From assembly GCA_002331465.1 (NCBI GenBank), contig DCYM01000042.1, forward strand, positions 1 to 36,008: DNA of 36,008 nucleotides, given 5' to 3'. The DNA is from Candidatus Neomicrothrix sp. UBA2110 (GTDB lineage Bacteria > Actinomycetota > Acidimicrobiia > Acidimicrobiales > Poriferisodalaceae). A program made the translations under genes and the position numbers. The notes under the pieces are model-generated. The model was not told where the DNA came from. It made no database searches and was given only the letters and a program-made list of their open reading frames with translations. The first letter of the stretch is position 1; every line of letters begins with the position of its first letter. Below are positions 6,655-22,386 of this stretch, piece by piece.

Positions 6655-6685
6655 GGCGCACGGTTTGGGTTCGGGAGCGACGTGT

Positions 6686-7390
6686 ATGAGCGAGCAACTA
6701 GAGCCTGAAGAGGATCTCGACCTTTCGTCGTTGAACGATGAAGACTTGACGGCACAGATGCACGATGATCTTTACGACGGGTTAAGAGACGAGGTCGTAG
6801 AAGGCACAGAGCTTCTACTTGGGCGTGGTTGGGGCCCTGACCGTGTCCTCAATGACGCCTTAGTAGAAGGCATGCGCGTCGTCGGCATCGATTTTCGCGA
6901 CGGCATTCTCTTTGTCCCTGAGGTCTTACTCGCCGCCAACGCAATGAAGGCCGGCATGGCAATCCTGAGACCTTTGCTTGCAGAAACCGGCGCAAAGCCG
7001 GTCGGTACGGTCGTTATCGGCACTGTCAAGGGCGACATCCATGACATAGGAAAAAATTTGGTTGCGATGATGCTGGAAGGCGCCGGCTTTGACGTATTTG
7101 ATCTAGGCATCAATACCGATGTGGACGAATATCTCGCAGCCCTAAACGAACACCAGCCAGACATCTTGGGGATGTCGGCCTTGTTGACGACCACGATGCC
7201 TTATATGAAAGTTGTAATCGACACGCTGACCGAACAAGGTCTTCGCGATGAGTACATAGTGCTCGTCGGCGGTGCGCCACTGAACCAAGAGTTCGGTGAT
7301 GCCATAGGAGCGGACGCGTACTGTCGCGATGCCGCAGTAGCTGCCGAAACCGCAATACAGTTTGTGCAAAAAAAGCGCGAAAGCGCGTGA
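6686..7390 (+). CDS. Methyltransferase-cognate corrinoid (B12-binding) protein, MtgC/MttC-like
   Basis: Carries the DxHxxG cobalamin-binding signature (GTVKGDIHDIGKNLVAMMLEGAGFDVFDLG), a B12-binding Rossmann domain and a helical cap. GGGAG lies 8 nt upstream of the ATG at 6686. The N-terminal roughly 35 aa are very acidic. Confidence 0.9.
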   Translation: MSEQLEPEEDLDLSSLNDEDLTAQMHDDLYDGLRDEVVEGTELLLGRGWGPDRVLNDALVEGMRVVGIDFRDGILFVPEVLLAANAMKAGMAILRPLLAETGAKPVGTVVIGTVKGDIHDIGKNLVAMMLEGAGFDVFDLGINTDVDEYLAALNEHQPDILGMSALLTTTMPYMKVVIDTLTEQGLRDEYIVLVGGAPLNQEFGDAIGADAYCRDAAVAAETAIQFVQKKRESA

Positions 7391-8034
7391 CGAAACCGCC
7401 GCGCCTTTTAGTGCTCGGCTGCGGTGCTTTAGCGCGAGAGTTCAGCGAGTTGCTGAAGTTGAATGGGCTTGCCGAAGTCACGCTTGAATTTTTACCTGCA
7501 GCACTCCACAATCGCCCCGAGAACATCCCTATTCAAGTACGCGAACGGTTGGAGATCGCGGTCCACAAATACGACAAAATCTTGTTGGGCTACGGCGATT
7601 GCGGGACTGGTGGCGGCTTGGATGCACTTTGCGACGAATTCAATGTTGTTCGCTTGCCGGGTGCGCATTGCTATGAGTTCTATTTGGACGGTGGGGTGTT
7701 TGAAGCACTCCACGACTCGGAACCAGCGACGTTTTACTTGACGGACTATTTAGCGAAGCATTTCGACCGCCTCGTCTTTGATGGATTAGGGATCACCTCC
7801 CATCCAGAACTCCTCGAGATCTATTTTGGTAACTACAAGCGCGTCGTTTTCTTGACCCAAACTGATTCTGTCGAACTACGCGCGCATGCCTTACACGCGG
7901 CAACCAAGCTTGGGTTGCCGTTGGAGGTGACGGCCACTGGCTATGGCCAGATGGAAACGGCAGTCATTAATTTCGGAATTCGCCCTCGAAAGTCGGATAG
8001 CGGATCGCTGCAACCGGTAGGCGCAGTTCAATGA
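7387..8034 (+). CDS. DUF1638 domain protein (unknown function, corrinoid-methyltransferase associated)
   Basis: The GTG start overlaps the corrinoid-protein stop (GTGA). The pattern LVLGCGAL...LPAALHNRP...LLGYGDCGTGG...PGAHCYEF matches my memory of the DUF1638 family. Confidence 0.65.
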   Translation: MTKPPRLLVLGCGALAREFSELLKLNGLAEVTLEFLPAALHNRPENIPIQVRERLEIAVHKYDKILLGYGDCGTGGGLDALCDEFNVVRLPGAHCYEFYLDGGVFEALHDSEPATFYLTDYLAKHFDRLVFDGLGITSHPELLEIYFGNYKRVVFLTQTDSVELRAHALHAATKLGLPLEVTATGYGQMETAVINFGIRPRKSDSGSLQPVGAVQ

Positions 8035-8366
8035 CGAGCCGAGGAGGGCGTCGACGCACACAGGGAATCACAATCATTTCCTGGCGCGATATCCCAGCCC
8101 AGGTCACCGTTATTTCTGACGGAGATAAGCAAACAGTCGTTCTTTCAGACCGCTTTCAGCACGCCATTGATCGAGCAGCGGTAGTAGCTGGCTTCACTGA
8201 AACCAACGCATACGTAGGGGAATGGCGCCGCAATGCACGCCCTCTCGCTGGGGCCGCTGGCGACGCTATCAAGTCGTTGGTGGCTCAGCTTGAAGCGGAA
8301 CATAGCCCGGACCGCCTCGAGGCGTTAATTCGCAACGGTGGCCTTGACTCTTTAAGTCCTAAGTAG
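8031..8366 (+). CDS. Small conserved protein resembling the 'virulence factor'-domain family found in MttB clusters
   Basis: ATGA overlap with the DUF1638 stop. The motif ISWRDIPAQV...DRFQHAIDRAAV...AYVGEWRR resembles, from memory and unverified, the small proteins annotated 'virulence factor' next to MttB/corrinoid genes in Alphaproteobacteria. Confidence 0.5.
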   Translation: MTSRGGRRRTQGITIISWRDIPAQVTVISDGDKQTVVLSDRFQHAIDRAAVVAGFTETNAYVGEWRRNARPLAGAAGDAIKSLVAQLEAEHSPDRLEALIRNGGLDSLSPK

Positions 8367-8440
8367 ACCCCACTGTGATCTCAAACAAGCGTGTGACCTG
8401 AGATCGAAGACGGCGACAAGACAGACCCGACAGGAACGGT

Positions 8441-9352
8441 ATGACCGACACAGTGATCAGTTCAGCATCGAAAGAGGTAGTCATTGGTTTCGATCGGCCC
8501 TTCGTGATGATCGGAGAGAGGATCAATCCCACGGGACGGAAGCTTCTTGCTGAGGAAATGAAGAACGGCGATTTCTCTCGAGTGGAAGCCGACGCGTTAA
8601 GCCAGGTTGCTGCCGGTGCACACATGCTCGACGTCAACGCCGGAATTCCGTTAGCTGACGAACCTGCGTTGCTCTGCAAAGCGATTCGACTCGTACAGTC
8701 GGTGACTGATGTGCCGCTATCTATCGACTCCTCCATTATTGAGGCCTTAGAGGCAGGCATAGCCGCATACGAGGGGAAACCGCTGATCAACTCCGTTACG
8801 GGAGAACTAGAAGTAATGGAACGGATCCTCCCACTAGTGGCAAAAAGCGGCGCTGCCGTGGTTGCGATCTCCAACGATGAAACTGGGATCAGCGAGGACC
8901 CTGACGTTCGATTCGAGGTAGCGAAACGAATCGTGAGTGTTGCCAATGATTTCGGAATTCCAACAGCAGATGTAGTTGTTGACCCTTTGGTGATGCCCAT
9001 CGGAGCGATGGGCAACGCGGGCCAACAGGTTTTCCGCCTTGTCCGCCGCCTTCGAGAAGAATTAGGAGTCAATACAACCTGTGGGGCATCCAACGTGAGC
9101 TTCGGGCTCCCGAATCGCCACGCGATCACGGGAACTTTTCTGGCGATGGCCGTTGGTGCCGGAATGACGTCGGCGATCATGAACCCGCTCCATTCGGAGG
9201 TGAAATCAGCTGTCATGGGAGCGGATGTGCTTATGGGAAACGACCAGAATTGCGCGAATTGGATCAGCATTCACCGCGACCCAAACGCGACTTCAACAGT
9301 ACGCGGCGGCCGTAGAAACCGGCGACGAGGACCCACCCAAGAGACAGTCTGA
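8441..9352 (+). CDS. Methyltetrahydrofolate:corrinoid methyltransferase (pterin-binding, DHPS-like TIM barrel; MtgA/AcsE/MetH-domain-like)
   Basis: Motifs IGERINPTGRKLLAEEMKNGDF, MLDVNAG, PLSIDSS, LINSV and CGASNVSFGLPNR are typical of pterin-binding methyltransferase domains. Confidence 0.85.
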   Translation: MTDTVISSASKEVVIGFDRPFVMIGERINPTGRKLLAEEMKNGDFSRVEADALSQVAAGAHMLDVNAGIPLADEPALLCKAIRLVQSVTDVPLSIDSSIIEALEAGIAAYEGKPLINSVTGELEVMERILPLVAKSGAAVVAISNDETGISEDPDVRFEVAKRIVSVANDFGIPTADVVVDPLVMPIGAMGNAGQQVFRLVRRLREELGVNTTCGASNVSFGLPNRHAITGTFLAMAVGAGMTSAIMNPLHSEVKSAVMGADVLMGNDQNCANWISIHRDPNATSTVRGGRRNRRRGPTQETV

Positions 9353-9359
9353 GAACGTC

Positions 9360-11396
9360 ATGAGCAGCGAACATCGAGTTATCTTCACTCCGTCTGGCCT
9401 AGAAGGTCGCACATCTGAAGGAACCACCGCGCTGGATGTGGCTCGAGAGCTTGGCGTTGATCTAGACAGTGTTTGTGGAGGTAGAGGAATCTGTGGCCGC
9501 TGCCAGGTGGTGCCGTCGTTCGGAGAATTTCCCAAATGGGCGCTTCACTCGAACCCCGCTCATTTAAGTGCTCCGAACACGACGGAAGGTGCCTACAGCG
9601 GAAAGCGCTCAATGGAGCAAGGTGCCCGACTCGGATGCCAGGCGAACATTCTTGGCGACATCGTTCTCGACGTCCCGCCGGCAAGTCAACTGCATGCGGC
9701 GGTGATTAGAAAGGAAATTAACCTCGCTGGGCTCGTGCTAGATCCGATCAGCACCTTGCATGTTATTTCAATCCCCAAACCAGAGCTAGGAGCCTCTTCT
9801 TCACTTACCGAGGCAGTGCGAGCGGCCCTTGTCGAAGAGTGGTCACTTGAGGTCGACGGGTTTAAACCAGAGGCCTTGCGCTCCCTGCAAACAGCTGCCG
9901 GTCAAGCAGAGAGCATCCTGACCGTGCAAGTTCGTCGAAGCCTGATTGGGTCTAGGGTCGAATCGGTTCGACCAGGCATGTCGGTGCAGTTGTTTGGGAT
10001 CGCCGTCGATGTTGGCTCAACGACAATTGCCGGCCACCTGCTCGATTTGGCGACGGGTGAACTGCTGGCCACCGGCGGGCTTATGAACCCCCAGATCCGC
10101 TTAGGTGAAGACCTGATGAGTCGGGTGAGCTACGCGATGATGAATGCCGACGGAGACAAGGAGCTAACTCGGGTAGTTCGGACGGCGATCTCCGAACTGA
10201 TTCAGAGTCTGGTAACAGAAGCGAACGTCGACGTTACTCACGTCGCAGAGCTGGTTATGGTTGGTAACCCAGTGATGCATCATCTGCTTCTTGGCTTGGA
10301 TCCAACGCCTTTGGGACAGGCCCCATTCCTTCTCGCGACTGCCGACGCTGTTGAGCTACCTGCCAAAAATCTTGACTTTCCCACCCAGCGAGCCTCTGTT
10401 TATGTGCCTCCATGCATTGCCGGCCACGTGGGTGCCGACACCGCTGCTGTGATTTTGGCCGAAGGCCCACATCGGTCACCGGAGATGCAGCTACTTGTCG
10501 ATATTGGTACCAACGCAGAAATTGTGCTGGGCAACGAGGAACGCCTATGCGCTGCGTCAAGCCCGACAGGTCCAGCATTTGAAGGCGCCCAAATCTCTTG
10601 TGGCCAGCGAGCGATTCCTGGGGCAATCGAACGAGTGCGGATTAATCGAGAAACTTTCGAGGCTGCTATTAAGCCAATTGGCTGTGATATCTGGTCCAAT
10701 GAACCGGGTTTTCTGGAGGCGACAAAGGACACAGGTATCACAGGGATTTGTGGGTCGGGCATTGTTGAAGCGATCGCTGAAATGTTTCTCAGCGGCGTAA
10801 TGACGCGCGACGGCGTTATTTTGGATAACCGGGAGAAATGTGACTGGGTTGTGGAAAATGATCGCACCTTCTCTTACGTCCTGTACCCCGCGACAGACCA
10901 GACGCACGGGCAGCCTGTCGTCATAACCCAAAACGATGTGAGAGCGATACAACTAGCAAAAGCTGCCCTGAGAGCTGGCATTGATCTATTGATGGAGCAC
11001 GCTCAAGTACAAGAGGTAGACATGGTTCGTTTAGCTGGGGCTTTCGGTGCACACATCGACCCTGTGTACGCGATGGTTCTTGGGTTAATCCCCGACTGCG
11101 CCCTTACACAGGTTCAAGCGGTTGGTAACGCGGCTGGTAGCGGGGCTGTTCGCATGCTGATCTCACGCGAGCAACGCCTTGAAATTGAAGAAGTTGTTCA
11201 AACCGTAGAGAAAATTGAAACAGCGACAGAACCCCGCTTTCAGCAACTCTTTGTCGATGCGATGGCTTTTCCGCATGCAACATCGTCGACCCCCCACCTG
11301 AATGAATTAGTTGATTTTTCTAACGTAATTGTTGAGCCGGTAGAGGCTCGTCGTCGCAACCGGAATCGACGCCAGGGCGTCAAGAAGGAGATTTAG
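9360..11396 (+). CDS. RACo-type corrinoid reductive activase: N-terminal plant-type [2Fe-2S] ferredoxin plus ASKHA (DUF4445) ATPase domain
   Basis: The ORF-track start at 9225 overlaps the upstream gene. The in-frame ATG at 9360 gives MSSEHRVIFTPSG..CGGRGICGRCQV (2Fe-2S). The ASKHA signatures DVGSTTIAGHL and VDIGTNAEIV follow. Confidence 0.85.
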   Translation: MSSEHRVIFTPSGLEGRTSEGTTALDVARELGVDLDSVCGGRGICGRCQVVPSFGEFPKWALHSNPAHLSAPNTTEGAYSGKRSMEQGARLGCQANILGDIVLDVPPASQLHAAVIRKEINLAGLVLDPISTLHVISIPKPELGASSSLTEAVRAALVEEWSLEVDGFKPEALRSLQTAAGQAESILTVQVRRSLIGSRVESVRPGMSVQLFGIAVDVGSTTIAGHLLDLATGELLATGGLMNPQIRLGEDLMSRVSYAMMNADGDKELTRVVRTAISELIQSLVTEANVDVTHVAELVMVGNPVMHHLLLGLDPTPLGQAPFLLATADAVELPAKNLDFPTQRASVYVPPCIAGHVGADTAAVILAEGPHRSPEMQLLVDIGTNAEIVLGNEERLCAASSPTGPAFEGAQISCGQRAIPGAIERVRINRETFEAAIKPIGCDIWSNEPGFLEATKDTGITGICGSGIVEAIAEMFLSGVMTRDGVILDNREKCDWVVENDRTFSYVLYPATDQTHGQPVVITQNDVRAIQLAKAALRAGIDLLMEHAQVQEVDMVRLAGAFGAHIDPVYAMVLGLIPDCALTQVQAVGNAAGSGAVRMLISREQRLEIEEVVQTVEKIETATEPRFQQLFVDAMAFPHATSSTPHLNELVDFSNVIVEPVEARRRNRNRRQGVKKEI

Positions 11397-11397
11397 C

Positions 11398-12924
11398 GTG
11401 GCTACACGTAGAGGAGGCGGGCGAGCGGCTCGTCGTGAACTAAGAAGCGCCGCTCCCCCACCATCGGCTCCGTTTATGGAACGCAAGATGCCGCCAGTCG
11501 AGGTACTCGACGAAGAGGCGTTGGTTCAGATTGAAGAAAATGCGGAAACTATCCTGAGTGAAATCGGCATAGCGTTCCAAGAGTTCCCCGAAGCCCTCGA
11601 CTTGTGGCGCGGTGCAGGCGCTGAGGTTGAGGGAGATTTAGTTAAGTTTCCCAAAGGGCTATGTCGGCAGTTAGTTAAGGAATCTGCTCCGAGTATTTAC
11701 ACCCAACACGCTCGCAATCCGCAACGTTCCGTTCAGATTGGCGGCAACAACACAGTATTCGCCCCGAACTATGGATCACCTTTCGTGACAGATCTAGACC
11801 TCGGGCGCCGATACGCCACCCTGGAAGATTTCCAGAACGTGGTGAAACTTACATACAGCCTTCCAAATCTTCATCACAGCGGGGGCACCGTTGTCGAACC
11901 AGTTGATGTTCCAGTCAACAAACGACACCTCGACATGGTCTATTCACATTTGAAGTTCAGTGACAAGCCTCTGATGGGTTCGGTGACGGCCCCTGAAAGA
12001 GCTGTCGATTCTATCGAATTGTGTCGCCTTGCCTTCGGCGGAGATCTCAGTGACCGCACTGTTACCACCAGCCTCATCAATGCGTCTTCACCCCTGCGTT
12101 GGGATGCCACCATGTTGGGAGCAGCGAAGGTTTATGCTGAGAATAATCAAGCTTGCGTGATCTCACCGTTCATTTTGGCGGGTGCCATGTCGCCGGTCAC
12201 CGTGGCTGGGTTGGCTGCGCAAGCGTTGGCCGAAGCCCTTTCGGGCATGGCGTTTTGTCAACTTGTGAGGCCAGGCGCACCAGTGGTTTTTGGCACATTC
12301 GCCTCGTCTATGTCCATGGCGACCGGCGCGCCTACTTTCGGAACGCCCGAAGCAGGCCTAGCGATATATGTAATGGCCGCGCTTGCGAGACGAGTTGGTG
12401 TGCCGTTTCGTTCCGGGGGGCAAATGACTTCATCGAAGAGCCCTGACGCCCAAGCAGCTTACGAGTCACTCGCGACCCTGCTGCCCACGATGCAAGCGGG
12501 CGTAAATTTTGTTCTTCACGCTGCCGGCTGGATAGAGGGCGGGCTTGCTCTCAGCTACGAGAAGTTGGTGATGGATGCGGACCAACTGGGCATGATGCAG
12601 GTGTACGCGGACGGCGTGGACATGACTGAAAACGGGCAAGCCATGGATGCCTTTAGGACTAACCCGCATGGGCAACATTTCCTTGGGAATCCCCACACGT
12701 TGGAAAATTTCGAGTCTGCTTTCTATAGATCCCAAATTGCCGACAACAACAGTTACGAACAGTGGTTTGAGGAAGGCGAGAAGACCGCTGCACAGCGAGC
12801 GAACGAGATCTGGAAACAAATGTTGGCAGACTACGAACCACCACCACTCGATGAAGCGGTTGACTTGGCGATGCTTGACTACATGGCCCGCCGTAAGAGT
12901 GAAGAACCCGATGCGATTGGCTGA
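11398..12924 (+). CDS. MttB-superfamily (trimethylamine methyltransferase family) corrinoid-dependent methyltransferase, non-pyrrolysine type; quaternary amine (likely glycine betaine) substrate
   Basis: 508 aa with no internal TAG. AAGGAG lies 7 nt upstream of the GTG at 11398. The N-terminal RRGGGRAARR and the overall length and composition are typical of non-Pyl MttB homologues. It is the last gene of the corrinoid operon. Confidence 0.85.
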   Translation: MATRRGGGRAARRELRSAAPPPSAPFMERKMPPVEVLDEEALVQIEENAETILSEIGIAFQEFPEALDLWRGAGAEVEGDLVKFPKGLCRQLVKESAPSIYTQHARNPQRSVQIGGNNTVFAPNYGSPFVTDLDLGRRYATLEDFQNVVKLTYSLPNLHHSGGTVVEPVDVPVNKRHLDMVYSHLKFSDKPLMGSVTAPERAVDSIELCRLAFGGDLSDRTVTTSLINASSPLRWDATMLGAAKVYAENNQACVISPFILAGAMSPVTVAGLAAQALAEALSGMAFCQLVRPGAPVVFGTFASSMSMATGAPTFGTPEAGLAIYVMAALARRVGVPFRSGGQMTSSKSPDAQAAYESLATLLPTMQAGVNFVLHAAGWIEGGLALSYEKLVMDADQLGMMQVYADGVDMTENGQAMDAFRTNPHGQHFLGNPHTLENFESAFYRSQIADNNSYEQWFEEGEKTAAQRANEIWKQMLADYEPPPLDEAVDLAMLDYMARRKSEEPDAIG

Positions 12925-16886: not shown

Positions 16887-17753
16887 TCAGGGTGCTTCTC
16901 TCGGTTTGAATTCAGGAGCATGGACGTACTGCCACCCAAAGCGGCCCTTGATGCATAGATGGCCTGAAGTTACTGAATGGTCGGACGGCGAGGTGACCTT
17001 AACTATGTGATTGTCTTGCGTGTGAAGTTCCAGGCTGCAACCCACACCGCAATACGAACAGACGGTTTCGGTTACTGTTTGCTCCGACGGTCGCCAGTCG
17101 TTGGCATCGCGAAGATCGAACTCAGTTTTAAATTGCAGAGCGTTGGTGGGACACACTCCGACGCAGTTTCCGCAATACACACATGCAGATTCTGGGAGCG
17201 GCACTTCATATTCAGTAGAGACCCGAGCATCGAAGCCGCGGCCAGCGATAGCGATAGCAAAAGTGTGTTGGGCATCATCTCCGCACGCCTCAACGCACTT
17301 GTAGCAAAGGACGCACTTGTCGTAAGCGCGAACGAAGAGATCATCTTCAATTTTAATTTGGTCTTCAATTTTAGCTGGGGCTTTGTATCGCTCAGTGTCA
17401 ACGTCGTACATCTCCGACCAGGCCACCAGATCGGGGCTTTGCGACAGGTCGTTACTAGACGCCAAGAACTCTAAAACCATCTTTCGGCTCCGATGGACGC
17501 GGTCGGTGTCCGTCAGAATTTGTGCACCGTCTTCACATACCCGAGAGCATGACGAAACCAACGTCCGGGACCCTTGTTGTTCGACGACGCAAAGCCTGCA
17601 TGCATTGGCAGGTGTGAGATTCTCAGCCCAACAAAGAGTCGGTATCTCTATCCCTGCTGAGTTTGCTGCCTGGAGAAGCGTCGTTCCCCCCTCAACTCTG
17701 ACCTTTATGCCGTTGATGTGTACCGAGACTTGGGAATCGCCTTGTTCTTTCAT
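16887..17753 (-). CDS. Formate dehydrogenase Fe-S module (NuoG/FdsA N-terminal-like): [2Fe-2S], His/Cys [4Fe-4S], 2x[4Fe-4S] ferredoxin, plus the MopB FS0 [4Fe-4S] domain, with no molybdopterin domain
   Basis: VHINGIKVRVEGGTTLLQAA..CRLCVVE (2Fe-2S); CVLCYKCVEAC and CVYCGNCVGVCP (ferredoxin clusters); C-terminal CSYCGVGCSLE...GHLCIKGRFGWQYV (Molybdop_Fe4S4-type motif). The protein ends about 15 aa after that motif. ATGA overlap with the upstream gene. Confidence 0.85.
   Translation of the reverse strand: MKEQGDSQVSVHINGIKVRVEGGTTLLQAANSAGIEIPTLCWAENLTPANACRLCVVEQQGSRTLVSSCSRVCEDGAQILTDTDRVHRSRKMVLEFLASSNDLSQSPDLVAWSEMYDVDTERYKAPAKIEDQIKIEDDLFVRAYDKCVLCYKCVEACGDDAQHTFAIAIAGRGFDARVSTEYEVPLPESACVYCGNCVGVCPTNALQFKTEFDLRDANDWRPSEQTVTETVCSYCGVGCSLELHTQDNHIVKVTSPSDHSVTSGHLCIKGRFGWQYVHAPEFKPREAP
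17344..17373 (-). repeat. In-frame 18-nt-period direct repeat (12 nt identical) inside the Fe-S module linker
   Basis: TCTTCAATTTTA occurs at 17344-17355 and again at 17362-17373. It encodes KIEDQ-IKIEDD. Confidence 0.6.
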
Positions 17754-19489
17754 GGCGCACCTGAGGGCAAAAGTCCGAGATCAAGCGCCGATTGGATGGC
17801 CGATGCCGCTGTGTGTCCCAGTCCGCAAATCGAGGCGTCACCCATCACCGCAGAGATGTCGTCAAGTAGCTCCCTTTGAGTTTGGTCGGGTCCTTTTGCG
17901 TTTATCTGAAGGAGGACCTCGTGCTGTCGCACTGTCCCAATCCGGCACGGAACGCACTGACCACAGGACTCATCACGGAAAAATTGGGCGAGACGGCGAG
18001 TGACATCCAACATGTTGACTTCATTTGAGAAGACCATCAGCGCCCCTGAACCCAAAGTGGTCTCATTAGCGGCTGCATCTTCGAGCGTCAGCGGGAGGTC
18101 CAGTTTCTCTGGGCCGACGAAACGACCGGCTGCGCCTCCCATAAGGATCGCTTGCAGGTCCCCCACCACTCCCCCAGCTATTTGCAATAGTTCTCCGAGC
18201 GAGACTCCGAAGGGAATTTCATACAATCCCGGAAATCGTATGTGCCCAGACAAACAAAACAATTTTGTTCCAGGAGATCGCTCGGTGCCTAATGACCGGT
18301 AGGCATCCACTCCACTGTTCAAAATTTCGAGCACGTTGATCAACGTTTCGGGATTGTTGATGACCGTGGGCTCGCCGAATAACCCGCTAGTCGTAGGAAA
18401 GGGGGGTTTGCTTCGCGGTTCTCCGCGCTGGCCTTCAATTGAGTTAAATAAAGCCGTTTCTTCGCCACAGATGTATGCGCCGGCGCCTCGTCGGACCTCG
18501 ATATCGAAGGAGTATTCAGAACCAGCGATCTTGGGTCCAAGGTATCCAGAGGCACGAGCGCTTTGTATTGCATGGTTTAATCGGCGTGTGGCTAGTGGGT
18601 ATTCGCCTCGGATATAAATCCACCCACGTTCTGATCCGGTGGTAACGCCTGCGATCGTCATCGCTTCAATAACCGCGAACGGATCATTTTCCATAATTAG
18701 GCGGTCCTTGAAAGTTCCGGGTTCGCTCTCGTCTGCGTTGGCGACAACGTGTTTAGAGGAAGAGTTCTCCTCAGCAACCGCACGCCACTTGGTTCCAGTA
18801 GGAAACGCCGCTCCGCCTCTTCCAGACAAACCAGATGCCTCGAGTGTGCTCAGTACTGCGTCGGTCCCGATGTTTAGGGCTAGAGCCAACGCGTCATAGC
18901 CACCGTTGGACTTATAAGAATCGATGCTCAGTGGGTCCGCGACACCAAAGCGTCTTAGCAATCGGAGAGAGGAGTCACCTCGTTGGGGATGAGAAAAACC
19001 ATCAGCGTCCGCTGGAACTCGATCGGGCGCGCCGACCTCTTGAATAAACATTGCAGGAGCGCGCTCACACTGCCCGAGGCAAGGGCTTTCGTGAACTCGC
19101 TGTCCGGTTGCTTGGATTTTAGATAGCAGGTCTGCTGAGCCGGCCATGGCGCATGCTGCATCAACACAAATGTGGTGTTGAGGGCCCGGGATAGAGGGTT
19201 TTTCAGTTGCAAACAAATCGTAAAATGTTGCTACGCCATATGCTTCGGCGGGAGGTACCTGAAGAACTTCCGCCAAATAATTGAGACCGCCGGGGCTTAT
19301 CCAGCCCTGCGAGTTTTGAAGCACATGTAGACCAGGGAGCAGTAGGTGCCGTTGCTCACGACGGCGCGTTACCCCGCCGCGTACGACTCTCTCTCCCTCG
19401 CGAACAACAGCTGTTTTGGTAACGAAGGAGTCGACAATTTGTATTTCCTCTGCATCGGGGCGAGCATCGCCGAATTGGAGGTCAGCCAC
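17750..19489 (-). CDS. NAD(H)-binding diaphorase subunit of formate dehydrogenase: NuoE-like [2Fe-2S] fused to NuoF-like FMN/[4Fe-4S] (FdsG-FdsB fusion)
   Basis: NuoE part: GVATFYDLF, CVDAAC...CLGQC. NuoF part: GRGGAAFPTGTKW, ESEPGTFKDR, ESCGQCVPCRIGT, ICGLGHTA. The ORF track starts at 19594 and overlaps fdhA by 113 nt. The GTG at 19489 overlaps the fdhA stop (GTGGCTGA) and leaves a normal-length NuoE N-terminus. The start is uncertain; TTG at 19501 is also possible. Confidence 0.8.
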   Translation of the reverse strand: MADLQFGDARPDAEEIQIVDSFVTKTAVVREGERVVRGGVTRRREQRHLLLPGLHVLQNSQGWISPGGLNYLAEVLQVPPAEAYGVATFYDLFATEKPSIPGPQHHICVDAACAMAGSADLLSKIQATGQRVHESPCLGQCERAPAMFIQEVGAPDRVPADADGFSHPQRGDSSLRLLRRFGVADPLSIDSYKSNGGYDALALALNIGTDAVLSTLEASGLSGRGGAAFPTGTKWRAVAEENSSSKHVVANADESEPGTFKDRLIMENDPFAVIEAMTIAGVTTGSERGWIYIRGEYPLATRRLNHAIQSARASGYLGPKIAGSEYSFDIEVRRGAGAYICGEETALFNSIEGQRGEPRSKPPFPTTSGLFGEPTVINNPETLINVLEILNSGVDAYRSLGTERSPGTKLFCLSGHIRFPGLYEIPFGVSLGELLQIAGGVVGDLQAILMGGAAGRFVGPEKLDLPLTLEDAAANETTLGSGALMVFSNEVNMLDVTRRLAQFFRDESCGQCVPCRIGTVRQHEVLLQINAKGPDQTQRELLDDISAVMGDASICGLGHTAASAIQSALDLGLLPSGAP

Positions 19490-21413
19490 GCGAAGTACCA
19501 ATGGGAAGCTTGTCGATCCGAATCGATGCGGCTTTGAATTCCGCTGTACCGCTGAGCGGATCCCACTCATCGTTGGTGAGAAGGTTGAGGTCAACTAACT
19601 CGGGAAAATGGAACGTCGAAAAGGTCAAGCCTGTGACTTGGTCTGGTTCGATTTTGATGTGCATTTCGACTCGGCCCCGAGGTGAGGACACTGACACCCT
19701 TTCACCATCAACGAGATTGAGGTTCAGGGCGTCAACTGTGCTGATTTCGAGATGTGAACCGGAACGTATCGGAGATTCATAGCCGCTGGATTGGACTCCT
19801 GTGTTGTAGGAGTCGAGCACTCTGCCGGTAGTTAAACGCAACGGATAGTCGTCGGTTAATTGTTCTTTGGGGCCTGCGTAGCGGGTAAGTGAGAAAGGTG
19901 CAGGTGCGCGCCCGTCCAGGTCGTCCTCCCAGAGCCACCCGTGTAGGTATGGCGTGCCGGGGTGATCAATATTCGGGCACGGCCACTGCAGTCCGCCTTC
20001 AGTTTCGAGGCGGTCGTAGGTCATGCCAGCGTGCATTGAAGACAAGGACCGGAGTTCATCCCATAGTTCTTCGGGAGTTTTAGCGGTCCATTTGGCCCCC
20101 ATGCGTTGAGCAAGTTCGCCAATAATTTCGTAATCGTGTCGACAGTCCCCCGGCGCCTTGACTGCGGCTCGCACGCGTTGCACTCGTCTTTCGCTTGATG
20201 TCACAGTGCCTTCGGATTCAGCCCAGCCGACAGTCGCTGGAAGTACAACGTCGGCGAGTTGTGCGGTGCGAGTAAGGAATATGTCTTGAACCACAAGAAT
20301 GTCGAGTTGAGCGAGGAGTTTCCTCGTGTGGTCGACGTCGGCTTCTGAATCGGCAGGGTTTTCGCCGATGATGTACAGAGCCGTCAAGTCGCCTCGGGCC
20401 ATGGCTTCGAACATCAACGTTAGGTGGAGCCCAGGTTCTGGATTGATAGGGCCGCCGTAAACTGATTCAAATTTTGCTCGGGCTGAGTCGTCAGCGACAT
20501 CTTGGAATCCAGGCAGTTTGTTGGGGAGGGCGCCCATGTCGCCGCCCCCTTGCACGTTGTTTTGGCCACGAAGCGGCACTAGGCCCGAGCCCCACCGACC
20601 GACGTGCCCGGTTAATAAGGCAAGGTTGCAGAGCGATAGCACGTTTTCAACGCCATTGTGATGCTCTGTGATTCCCAGAGTCCAAAGAATTTGCGCAGTG
20701 GGTGCAGTTGCGTACCCGTGTGCTAATTCCCGTATCGCATTCGCATTAACCCCGGTGGTTGCTGCTGCTCGCTCCAGCGTGTATTCATCGACGTGATCGG
20801 CGAAGGCGTCGAACCCTGACGTTGCGTGTTCGATGAACTCTTTGTTGTGGAGATTCGCGGCAATTATTTCCCTCGACATGGCATTGGCTAGCGATATGTC
20901 AGTGCCGACGCCTATTCCGAGCCACAGATCTGCAAATTTGGCAGATGCGGTTCGTCTAGGGTCGACGGCGAACATTTTGGCGCCTTTAGAAAGTCCTTTA
21001 AGGACATGATGAAAATAGATCGGGTGCGCGGCCCTTGCATTAGATCCCCACAACAAAACAAAGTCCGTATCTTCTACCTCCGCGTAGGAAGAGGTCCCGC
21101 CCCCGACCCCAAACACTGTCGCCAGACCGACGACGCTAGGAGCGTGTCAAGTTCGGTTACACGAATCAATATTGTTCGAACCGACGGCAGTACGGATAAA
21201 TTTTTGGGCCGCGTAGTTCATCTCGTTGGTGCTTTTCGAACAACTGAAGAGACCGAATGTTTCATGACCACGGTCATTTATGGCTTGATTGAAGCCGTCC
21301 GCTGCACGGGTGAGTGCTTCATCCCAAGAGGCTTCCCGCAGTTCTCCGTTTTCGCGAACCATGGGTTTGGTGATCCGTGCTAACGGCTTGGGATGGTCTG
21401 TCTTCGAGGTCAT
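19482..21413 (-). CDS. fdhA: Formate dehydrogenase catalytic (Mo/W-bisPGD, MopB) subunit containing selenocysteine; in-frame UGA at 21149..21147; lacks the N-terminal FS0 cluster domain
   Basis: ORFs 21147..21542 and 19482..21116 share one frame. Read-through gives SNNIDSCNRT-U-HAPSVVGLATVFGVGGGTSSY. The ATG at 21413 has AGGAG 5 nt upstream. The C-terminal molybdopterin dinucleotide-binding domain is present (RLTTGRVLDSYNTG...GERVSVSSPRGRVEMHIKI). Confidence 0.85.
21118..21134 (-). promoter_or_regulatory. Bacterial SECIS-like hairpin directing Sec insertion at the fdhA UGA
   Basis: The mRNA reads UGA-CACGCUCCUAGC-GUCGUC-GGUCU-GGCGAC: a 6-bp stem (one G.U) with a GGUCU loop, starting 12 nt after the UGA. 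E. coli fdhF has UGA-N12-GGUUGCAGGUCUGCACC with the same GGUCUG apex. Confidence 0.65.
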
Positions 21414-21562
21414 AAAGACTCCTGTTTCGCGATTGCCGTGGAGAGACGAACCTCTTTCAGTGTACGGGGCATCTAAGGCCAGCCTCAGCGCAGTCGTTCT
21501 TTCGAATACGGAAATGCGACGGTGTTCGGTAACCGACTCCACCTCGAGAAATCTTGTGAGTA

Positions 21563-21602: not shown

Positions 21603-21642
21603 GCTGTTCCACGATGTGGCACACTCAGGACGGAGGTTTCTA

Positions 21643-22386
21643 ATGGCAGTCGTGCAATCGGTACACAGGGCGTTCGCGATTTTGCGAGCACTTTCTTCTG
21701 GTCCGCTAGGAGTGACTGAGGTATCTCAGCGAGTGGGATTGCCCAAAAGTACCGTGGCCCGCTTGTTGGCGGCTCTTGATGAAGAAGGGGCGGTGCGTCA
21801 AGGTCAAGCTGGTGGTCGATATTCGTTGGATGATGGACTTCTTGATCTGGCGGGCGAAATCGGTGGTAATCGAACCTTGCTAGCGGTGGCTCGATCGCAT
21901 TTATTGGACTTGGTCGACTCAATTGGTGAGACCTCAGGTATTGGAGTGAGGGAAGGCCGGGAGATCTACTACGCCGACCACGTTGAGTTCGATAGCCAAG
22001 TTCAGGTCAGGAATTGGACTGGAGAACATGCCCCTCTACATCTTGTTCCATCTGGCCTCGTGTTTTTGGCACACATGAAAACCGAAGAGGTTGACGCTTA
22101 TTTAGATGAGCCTTTGGAGGTTACGACCGCTCAGAGCGAAGTAGATCCGGTGAAGATTCGACAACGCCTTGGACAAATTCGCAGAGTCGGGTATTGCTGG
22201 GGACACCAGGAATTCGCCGAGGATCTCAACTCAATGGCAGCACCTGTTTTCAACGCTAGAGGCAACATGGTCGCTGCTCTCCACGTCCACGGACCTGCCT
22301 ACAGGTTCCCTGACCCTGAGCAAACGCACGACTTGGGTATCCTGTTGGCCGCTACTTGCGAGCGGATGACTCTTCAGCTCGGTTGA
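21643..22386 (+). CDS. IclR-family transcriptional regulator
   Basis: The N-terminal wHTH SVHRAFAILRALSSGPLGVTEVSQRVGLPKSTVARLLAAL and the C-terminal effector domain are typical of IclR. GGAGG lies 6 nt upstream of the ATG at 21643; the ORF track starts at 21616. Confidence 0.85.
   Translation: MAVVQSVHRAFAILRALSSGPLGVTEVSQRVGLPKSTVARLLAALDEEGAVRQGQAGGRYSLDDGLLDLAGEIGGNRTLLAVARSHLLDLVDSIGETSGIGVREGREIYYADHVEFDSQVQVRNWTGEHAPLHLVPSGLVFLAHMKTEEVDAYLDEPLEVTTAQSEVDPVKIRQRLGQIRRVGYCWGHQEFAEDLNSMAAPVFNARGNMVAALHVHGPAYRFPDPEQTHDLGILLAATCERMTLQLG

Follow-up and report, generated by a model that had tools for sequence, protein, structure and literature searches.

The window analysed here is the whole 36,008-nucleotide stretch of contig DCYM01000042.1 from Candidatus Neomicrothrix sp. 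UBA2110, a member of the Acidimicrobiia. Its minus strand carries a gene for the catalytic subunit of a formate dehydrogenase (FDH) with a single in-frame UGA codon, followed by a short RNA hairpin that resembles a bacterial selenocysteine insertion sequence (bSECIS). The gene and the elements around the UGA are:

19482..21413, minus strand: FDH catalytic (molybdopterin) subunit, complete coding sequence of 643 amino acids, with a predicted selenocysteine (Sec) at residue 89 and without an Fe4S4 domain (from translation, Pfam, TIGR01591 and alignments to Protein Data Bank (PDB) sequences)
21147..21149, minus strand: putative selenocysteine codon (in-frame UGA), residue 89, followed by His90 (from direct reading, homologous codons and PDB alignment)
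21150..21152, minus strand: Thr88 codon ACU, directly 5′ of the UGA (ACU in 78 of 81 sequences; ACC is dominant at other Thr columns)
21118..21134, minus strand: bSECIS minihelix, with 5′ arm GUCGUC (21134..21129), loop GGUCU (21128..21124) and 3′ arm GGCGAC (21123..21118) (from folds and conservation of pairing)
21419..21423, minus strand: AGGAG, a Shine-Dalgarno-like sequence 5 nucleotides 5′ of ATG 21413 (from reading of the sequence) and presumably a ribosome-binding site

The interrupted gene and its relatives

A previous reading of this DNA, made from the sequence only, had joined two minus-strand open reading frames (ORFs), 21147..21542 and 19482..21116, into one gene. The coordinates bear this out: the two ORFs share a frame and are separated by TGA (21149..21147) and ten sense codons (CAC GCT CCT AGC GTC GTC GGT CTG GCG ACA), after which comes GTG 21116, the start assigned by the ORF finder to the downstream fragment. 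The minus strand around the UGA reads TGT AAC CGA ACT TGA CAC GCT CCT AGC GTC GTC GGT CTG GCG ACA GTG TTT, and the read-through peptide is as had been claimed, ...GSNNIDSCNRT-U-HAPSVVGLATVFGVGGGTSSY..., with ...SCNRT-U-HAPSVVGLATVFGVGGGTSSYAEVEDTDFVLLWGSNAR across the UGA itself. The start of the upstream ORF at GTG 21542 is not favoured; ATG 21413, with AGGAG at 21423..21419, is the most probable true start, as the N-termini of relatives begin at or next to the column of this ATG and coding conservation is absent upstream of it. An alternative genetic code is rejected because TGA is the stop codon of 17 of the 26 Pfam-supported ORFs in the window, in agreement with the proposal of local recoding.

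The identification of the fused product as the catalytic subunit of an FDH with a molybdenum or tungsten bis-pyranopterin guanine dinucleotide (Mo/W-bis-PGD) cofactor was upheld by the domain models. Pfam recognised Molybdopterin (PF00384) at residues 13-436 (E = 2.6e-72) and Molydop_binding (PF01568) at residues 525-628 of the 643-residue protein, which has no PF04879 (Fe4S4) domain; its short N-terminus is conserved in relatives. The NCBIfam equivalog model for formate dehydrogenase alpha, TIGR01591, aligns with the protein over profile positions 52-672 at 638.3 bits (curated cut-off 666.25 bits), and profile positions 1-50 match the C-terminus of a separate 288-residue protein at 55.9 bits, so that the model is covered by the two polypeptides together. 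For structural comparison, the 643-residue protein was searched with phmmer against PDB sequences. Residue 89 aligned with the active-site Cys of the FdhF of Thermoanaerobacter hydrogen-dependent CO2 reductase (7qv7_S, ...CARLCHAPTVAGL...), with a Cys of 7bkb_D and with a non-standard residue 'X' of the F420-dependent enzyme 9t1s_L. The His after residue 89 and the downstream motif PLRGQNNVQG, which presumably contains the FdhF active-site Arg, are conserved in the alignment, and the alignments to FdhF-type and FdsA-type enzymes begin at about residue 60 or about residue 308 of the known chains. The UGA therefore stands, as first suggested, in a canonical active-site context, at the column that holds the catalytic Cys or Sec in solved FdhF-type structures; this column is Cys in the relatives P0194 and P0147.

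Related loci were collected (82 in total, 80 of them from a scan with one genome per species) whose products share 69-99% amino-acid identity with the window protein. The 80 scanned loci are labelled Acidimicrobiia, Acidimicrobiales, Microthrix, 'Aldehydirespirator' or Actinomycetota, with three exceptions, and the closest is DUBN01000045.1 (Acidimicrobiia bacterium UWMA-0303, 99% identical). All 82 have TGA at the homologous codon, and none has any other stop or frameshift. Codon differences are more often synonymous than not, upstream of the UGA (2210 synonymous versus 1488 non-synonymous) as well as downstream of it (18624 versus 11556); therefore, both parts are translated and under purifying selection. 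In three metagenome-assembled genomes, labelled Gammaproteobacteria (L040, L081) and Myxococcota (L045), this Sec-type operon occurs too, 70-72% identical to that of the window, representing either mis-binned contigs of Acidimicrobiia or horizontal transfer.

That standard pipelines would split this gene had been foreseen, and public gene calls do consist of a 71-residue N-terminal fragment and a 5′-truncated FDH of 544 residues. On two metagenome contigs (L001, L002), a 71-residue Molybdopterin fragment, a gap of 30 nucleotides and a protein of about 540 residues were called. The best 120 protein homologues (70-96% identity, 497-570 residues, 77-86% query coverage) were all called from just after the UGA. 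In a search of 1.84 billion cluster representatives with the first 88 residues as query, the top 150 were mostly short proteins ending exactly at query residue 88; some of these 150 have upstream Fe-S domains yet also end there, such as P0222, which ends ...DQCART. A few Cys-type relatives among them, P0194 and P0147, read ...SCNRTCHAPSVAGL... with the context CNRTCHAPSV. P0194 and P0147 have the same short N-terminus as the window subunit, and therefore the split catalytic subunit also occurs without selenocysteine in other lineages.

The hairpin downstream of the UGA

A hairpin, GUCGUC-GGUCU-GGCGAC, begins 12 nucleotides after the UGA, where it had been predicted, and appears in both the minimum free energy and the centroid folds; the 17-mer alone folds at -6.8 kcal/mol (z = -2.6). 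Bacterial SECIS elements have a stem of 6-8 base pairs and a conserved loop G about 20 nucleotides after the UGA (PMC4605307). The window element, with a 6-base-pair stem and a GGUCU loop that places G at +19/+20, fits this geometry.

Codon usage across relatives provides the main evidence for the element. In a codon alignment of 81 sequences, 193 conserved columns specify an amino acid with at least four codons; their median codon entropy is 1.59 bits, and codons 94-98 (GUC GUC GGU CUG GCG), which encode the hairpin, fall below 0.2 bits. Only these five and Thr88 are below 0.3 bits among the 193 columns, and the six-codon window of lowest entropy in the whole gene begins at codon 94, while the adjacent codons for Ala, Pro, Ser and Gly differ freely among the sequences. 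The fixed synonymous site of Thr88 seems to reflect a constraint of context on the base preceding the UGA and may contribute to the recoding context.

Conservation of the hairpin alongside the stop codon had been set beforehand as a test of the proposal, and all six pairs are kept: in an alignment (A1) of 69 distinct sequences, each of the six helix pairs is a standard pair in 100% of them. Pair 21-33 has changed from C-G to U-A in one sequence (L068) and to G-C in another (L074), two independent double compensatory substitutions. Pair 20-34 is U-A or U-G (U-G in 11 sequences), pair 23-31 is U-G (U-A in 1), and 12 single changes in all preserve pairing through wobble. The hairpin is under selection at the nucleotide level, with compensatory changes. 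Coding on the opposite strand is an unlikely source of the constraint, as that strand has a single ORF here (21006..21383), a shadow ORF, and the constrained stretch is limited to 17 nucleotides. When 1.6 Mb of loci were scanned for further in-frame TGA codons with a GGUC-loop hairpin after them, only the FDH sites recurred; five singletons were found, apparently by chance.

Proposed selenocysteine decoding and its alternatives

The features of a bSECIS-dependent gene are found together here: a UGA at the catalytic column, the appropriate geometry, and conservation of both UGA and hairpin with structure-preserving changes. The UGA at 21149..21147 is judged to be a selenocysteine codon with a probability of about 0.9. 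Incorporation of selenium at residue 89 would involve SelB and tRNA-Sec: SelB is expected to outcompete RF2 at the UGA so that Sec89 is inserted, yielding a 643-residue Mo/W-bis-PGD catalytic subunit with a Sec-His active site.

Several observations weigh against this reading. The window hairpin is without the bulged U of the Escherichia coli fdhF minihelix, double-change covariation is limited to one helix pair because the element is almost invariant, and regions of 42 and 63 nucleotides around the hairpin fold no better than shuffled sequences. Because these longer stretches gain no stability over shuffled ones, folding energy is discounted as evidence, and conservation carries the case. A longer lower helix that includes the UGA (GACAC/GUGUU), predicted by the minimum free energy fold, was rejected on finding one of its pairs broken in 15 of the 69 distinct sequences. 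Rfam at gathering thresholds matched nothing in the window. The covariance-model check that had been suggested for the hairpin also failed: in a permissive search of 251 nucleotides, SECIS_3 (RF01989), the sole Rfam SECIS family that aligns to the element, scored 13.2 bits (E = 3.7), far below its gathering threshold of 63; therefore, the element is not a member of SECIS_3 by the Rfam criterion. The weak match lies at 21094..21152 on the minus strand, with the model's UGA and xGUCU loop falling on the UGA and loop of the window. By our reading, the SECIS_3 consensus encodes U-H-G-P-T-V-A-S-L-A-P-T-F-G-R-G-A-M, a different FDH mRNA context that we take to be of the respiratory FdnG type. The same permissive scan gave a match to mir-127, which is spurious and on the opposite strand. 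Finally, no tRNA-Sec was found by ARAGORN, and no selA, selB or selD by tblastn, in the window or within 10 kb on either side of the 82 loci; the tblastn queries were E. coli SelA, SelB and SelD, and the absence of matches at E ≤ 1e-3 tests linkage only. Therefore, any genes for Sec decoding are unlinked to the FDH gene. ARAGORN found no tRNA gene at all, whether in the window or in about 1.6 Mb flanking the 82 loci, a strikingly low number although the loci are syntenic and not independent.

Elsewhere in the class Acidimicrobiia, Sec machinery has been reported. In Actinomarina, 84 of 84 complete genomes contain selA, selB (divergent), selC and selD, in a study whose text does not mention formate dehydrogenase (bioRxiv 10.64898/2026.04.03.716425), and in a sponge metagenome, Acidimicrobiales bin76 has COGs for SelA and SelB, both of which bin134 lacks (PMC5649159 Table S4). 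No bacterial selenoprotein is more widespread than FdhA, which occurs in 67 of 75 organisms that use Sec (PMC1794560), and in Actinobacteria (mycobacteria), where UGA is the commonest stop codon, selenoprotein genes are mis-annotated for that reason (PMC13449736).

The UGA might instead be read through by a near-cognate Trp or Cys tRNA or by some other route that does not depend on SelB, in which case the hairpin would be only a stimulator of read-through. Such a route would suit the lack of Sec machinery near any of the 82 loci, the scores of the Rfam SECIS models below threshold, and the Cys-type relatives with the same context, which indicate that Cys is functionally tolerated at the site. 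However, the GGUCU loop and its distance from the UGA are those of SelB-dependent elements, other Acidimicrobiia have documented Sec machinery, and FdhA is the prototypical bacterial selenoprotein; moreover, a sense codon would be a far cheaper way to specify Cys or Trp, yet 0 of 82 lineages have switched to one. Read-through without selenocysteine is accordingly considered improbable.

Two further explanations, both of them very improbable, take the TGA as a true stop. If the two fragments were non-functional remnants of a pseudogene, which is how gene callers annotate them, the missing Fe4S4 domain of the catalytic subunit could resemble decay; but a gene downstream, coupled in translation, encodes that domain intact, in an arrangement conserved in 73 of 83 loci, and neither the recurrence of the same single TGA at 69-99% identity with no further lesions nor the excess of synonymous changes on both sides of it is compatible with decay, so the comparative data effectively refute a pseudogene already. 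If translation terminated at the UGA and re-initiated at the GTG 30 nucleotides downstream, an 88-residue peptide and a 544-residue protein might assemble into an enzyme with neither a Sec nor a Cys ligand, and the alpha subunit of this enzyme is, after all, already split elsewhere. Against this, the GTG is replaced by GTC or GTA in 17 of 81 relatives and is therefore not a conserved start, no conserved ribosome-binding site precedes it, the ten codons from UGA to GTG specify the same amino acids throughout, the catalytic His among them, and the molybdenum ligand residue would be lost.

A divided alpha subunit, its surroundings and known systems

The gene for the catalytic subunit stands at the head of an operon with two other genes, beyond which lies a divergent regulator:

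17750..19489, minus strand: diaphorase subunit of 579 amino acids, a fusion of a NuoE-like [2Fe-2S] part and a NuoF-like FMN/NADH/[4Fe-4S] part (Pfam PF01512, PF10589, PF01257; PDB matches)
16887..17753, minus strand: stand-alone N-terminal part of an FdsA-type alpha subunit, 288 amino acids (Fer2_4, two Fer4 and Molybdop_Fe4S4 domains by Pfam)
21616..22386, plus strand: IclR-family regulator, divergent (HTH_IclR and IclR_C by Pfam), the same neighbour as in L001 and L002 and possibly a regulator of the operon

The GTG start of the diaphorase gene overlaps the FDH stop codon (GTGGCTGA), with the same length and overlap in the L001 gene call, and the ATG of the 288-residue gene overlaps the diaphorase stop codon (ATGA). 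The diaphorase fusion gives a full-length match to the beta subunit of the tungsten FDH of Methylobacterium extorquens (7e5z_B) and further matches to FdsB of Rhodobacter capsulatus and Cupriavidus necator (6tg9_B, 6vw7_B). The 288-residue protein, with PF04879 at residues 226-278, matches residues 1-303 of FdsA (6tg9_A) and residues 70-343 of 7e5z_A, and the 643-residue catalytic protein corresponds to residues 308-931 of 6tg9_A. Because the former ends at about FdsA residue 303 and the latter begins at 308, and the two divide TIGR01591 into positions 1-50 and 52-672, the alpha subunit is split exactly between its Fe4S4 and molybdopterin domains, a feature absent from the previous reading. 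The gene order (catalytic, beta, N-terminal Fe-S) is present in 73 of 83 sequences, the remainder being cut by contig ends. The best 120 homologues of the 288-residue protein are all stand-alone proteins of 272-334 residues, named '2Fe-2S iron-sulfur cluster-binding protein' or similar. A shallow check of the literature did not find this split and permuted arrangement described. Neither fdsD nor fdsC/fdhD is present in the window.

The catalytic subunit most likely works with the NuoE/NuoF fusion and with the 288-residue Fe-S protein that carries the Fe4S4 domain. Together, the three may assemble into an NAD-linked formate dehydrogenase that oxidises formate arising from the adjoining genes of methylated-amine and tetrahydrofolate C1 metabolism. 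It is tentatively proposed, at somewhat less than even odds, that in Acidimicrobiia from marine and sponge habitats (77 species-level genomes or more) the sole form of this NAD-linked enzyme is obligately selenium-dependent and has an undescribed architecture in which the alpha subunit is split and permuted, so that the cluster nearest the Mo/W cofactor is supplied in trans.

The neighbourhood of the operon contains a number of related genes. They include electron transfer flavoprotein alpha and beta subunits, a DAO/GCV_T gene (dimethylglycine-dehydrogenase-like), formate-tetrahydrofolate ligase, methylenetetrahydrofolate reductase, a GMC oxidoreductase, and a cluster of corrinoid protein, MttB, RACo and pterin-methyltransferase genes. 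This cluster (6665-12924, plus strand) encodes a B12-binding protein, DUF1638, a small 'Virulence_fact' (PF13769) protein, a pterin-binding MtrH-like methyltransferase, a RACo-type reductive activator and an MttB homologue that is uninterrupted (non-pyrrolysine). The cluster fits demethylation of glycine betaine or a methylamine into the tetrahydrofolate C1 pathway, and from this context the FDH would dispose of the formate produced by methylated-amine C1 oxidation. Within the cluster, at 8359-9352, two ORFs of 303 amino acids overlap fully on opposite strands: that on the plus strand (8441..9352) has a Pterin_bind domain, and that on the minus strand is a shadow ORF.

A Sec-containing FdhA with a downstream SECIS is a textbook bacterial selenoprotein, and the mechanism is not new; the gene is, however, systematically mis-called in public data across this bacterial group. 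Because it is called as fragments or truncated proteins, current annotations show neither the active site nor the selenium requirement nor the true subunit composition. Annotating the gene correctly matters for how the oxidation of formate and C1 compounds is reconstructed in marine Acidimicrobiia and for estimates of selenium use in the ocean, and the near-invariant 17-nucleotide element, undetected by Rfam, is a clean seed for a covariance model of actinobacterial SECIS elements of the FdhF/FdsA type. The parts most worth further attention are the split alpha subunit, which may interest those who work on metal-dependent formate dehydrogenases, and the predicted clade-wide dependence on Sec, for which the decoding genes would be unlinked. 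If the enzyme is indeed obligately selenium-dependent, selenium supply would be tied to the oxidation of formate from glycine betaine and methylated amines in an abundant ocean lineage.

With respect to decoding genes, the window differs from mycobacteria, whose FDH is described as fdhA/fdoG adjoining selABCD (PMC13449736), whereas no sel gene is linked to the FDH of the window. The Actinomarinales, which possess selA, selB, selC and selD, belong to the same class as the window lineage.

With respect to the hairpin, the proposed likeness to the E. coli fdhF SECIS holds in one respect, GGUCUG being at +19..+24 after the UGA in both, and not in others, as loop size and bulge differ. The E. coli element (TGACACGGCCCATCGGTTGCAGGTCTGCACC..., 100% identical by BLAST in the fdhF of 5419 of 5426 complete E. 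coli genomes) has a 4-nucleotide GGUC loop, a bulged U and a folding energy of -4.2 kcal/mol, whereas that of the window has a 5-nucleotide GGUCU loop on an unbroken 6-base-pair stem and folds at -6.8 kcal/mol. The SECIS of Moorella thermoacetica fdhA, an RNA that has been crystallised with the winged-helix domains of SelB, has the sequence ...GUUGCC-GGUCU-GGCAAC... and no bulge. The window hairpin is presumably closer to this element than to that of E. coli, having the same GGUCU loop closed by C-G, and the L068 variant, GUUGUC-GGUCU-GGCAAC, appears closer still. Moorella differs in its longer stem and in being an anaerobic acetogen with an NADP-linked tungsten enzyme.

With respect to the protein, E. 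coli FdhF (1aa6_A) is homologous over window residues 13-636 (E = 1.5e-125) and shares the context U-H-x-P-S-V-x-G-L, but it has its own Fe4S4 domain and is partnered by hydrogenase 3, whereas the window enzyme has its Fe4S4 domain on another polypeptide and NuoE/F-like partners. The window enzyme shares its cofactor-binding modules with FdsABG of R. capsulatus and C. necator and with FoDH1 (Fdh1AB) of M. extorquens. In those enzymes, the NuoG-like Fe-S domains and the catalytic domain form a single alpha subunit of about 950 residues, whereas in the window they are encoded by two genes in permuted order, and the predicted active-site residue is Sec, unlike the Cys used by characterised FdsA enzymes.

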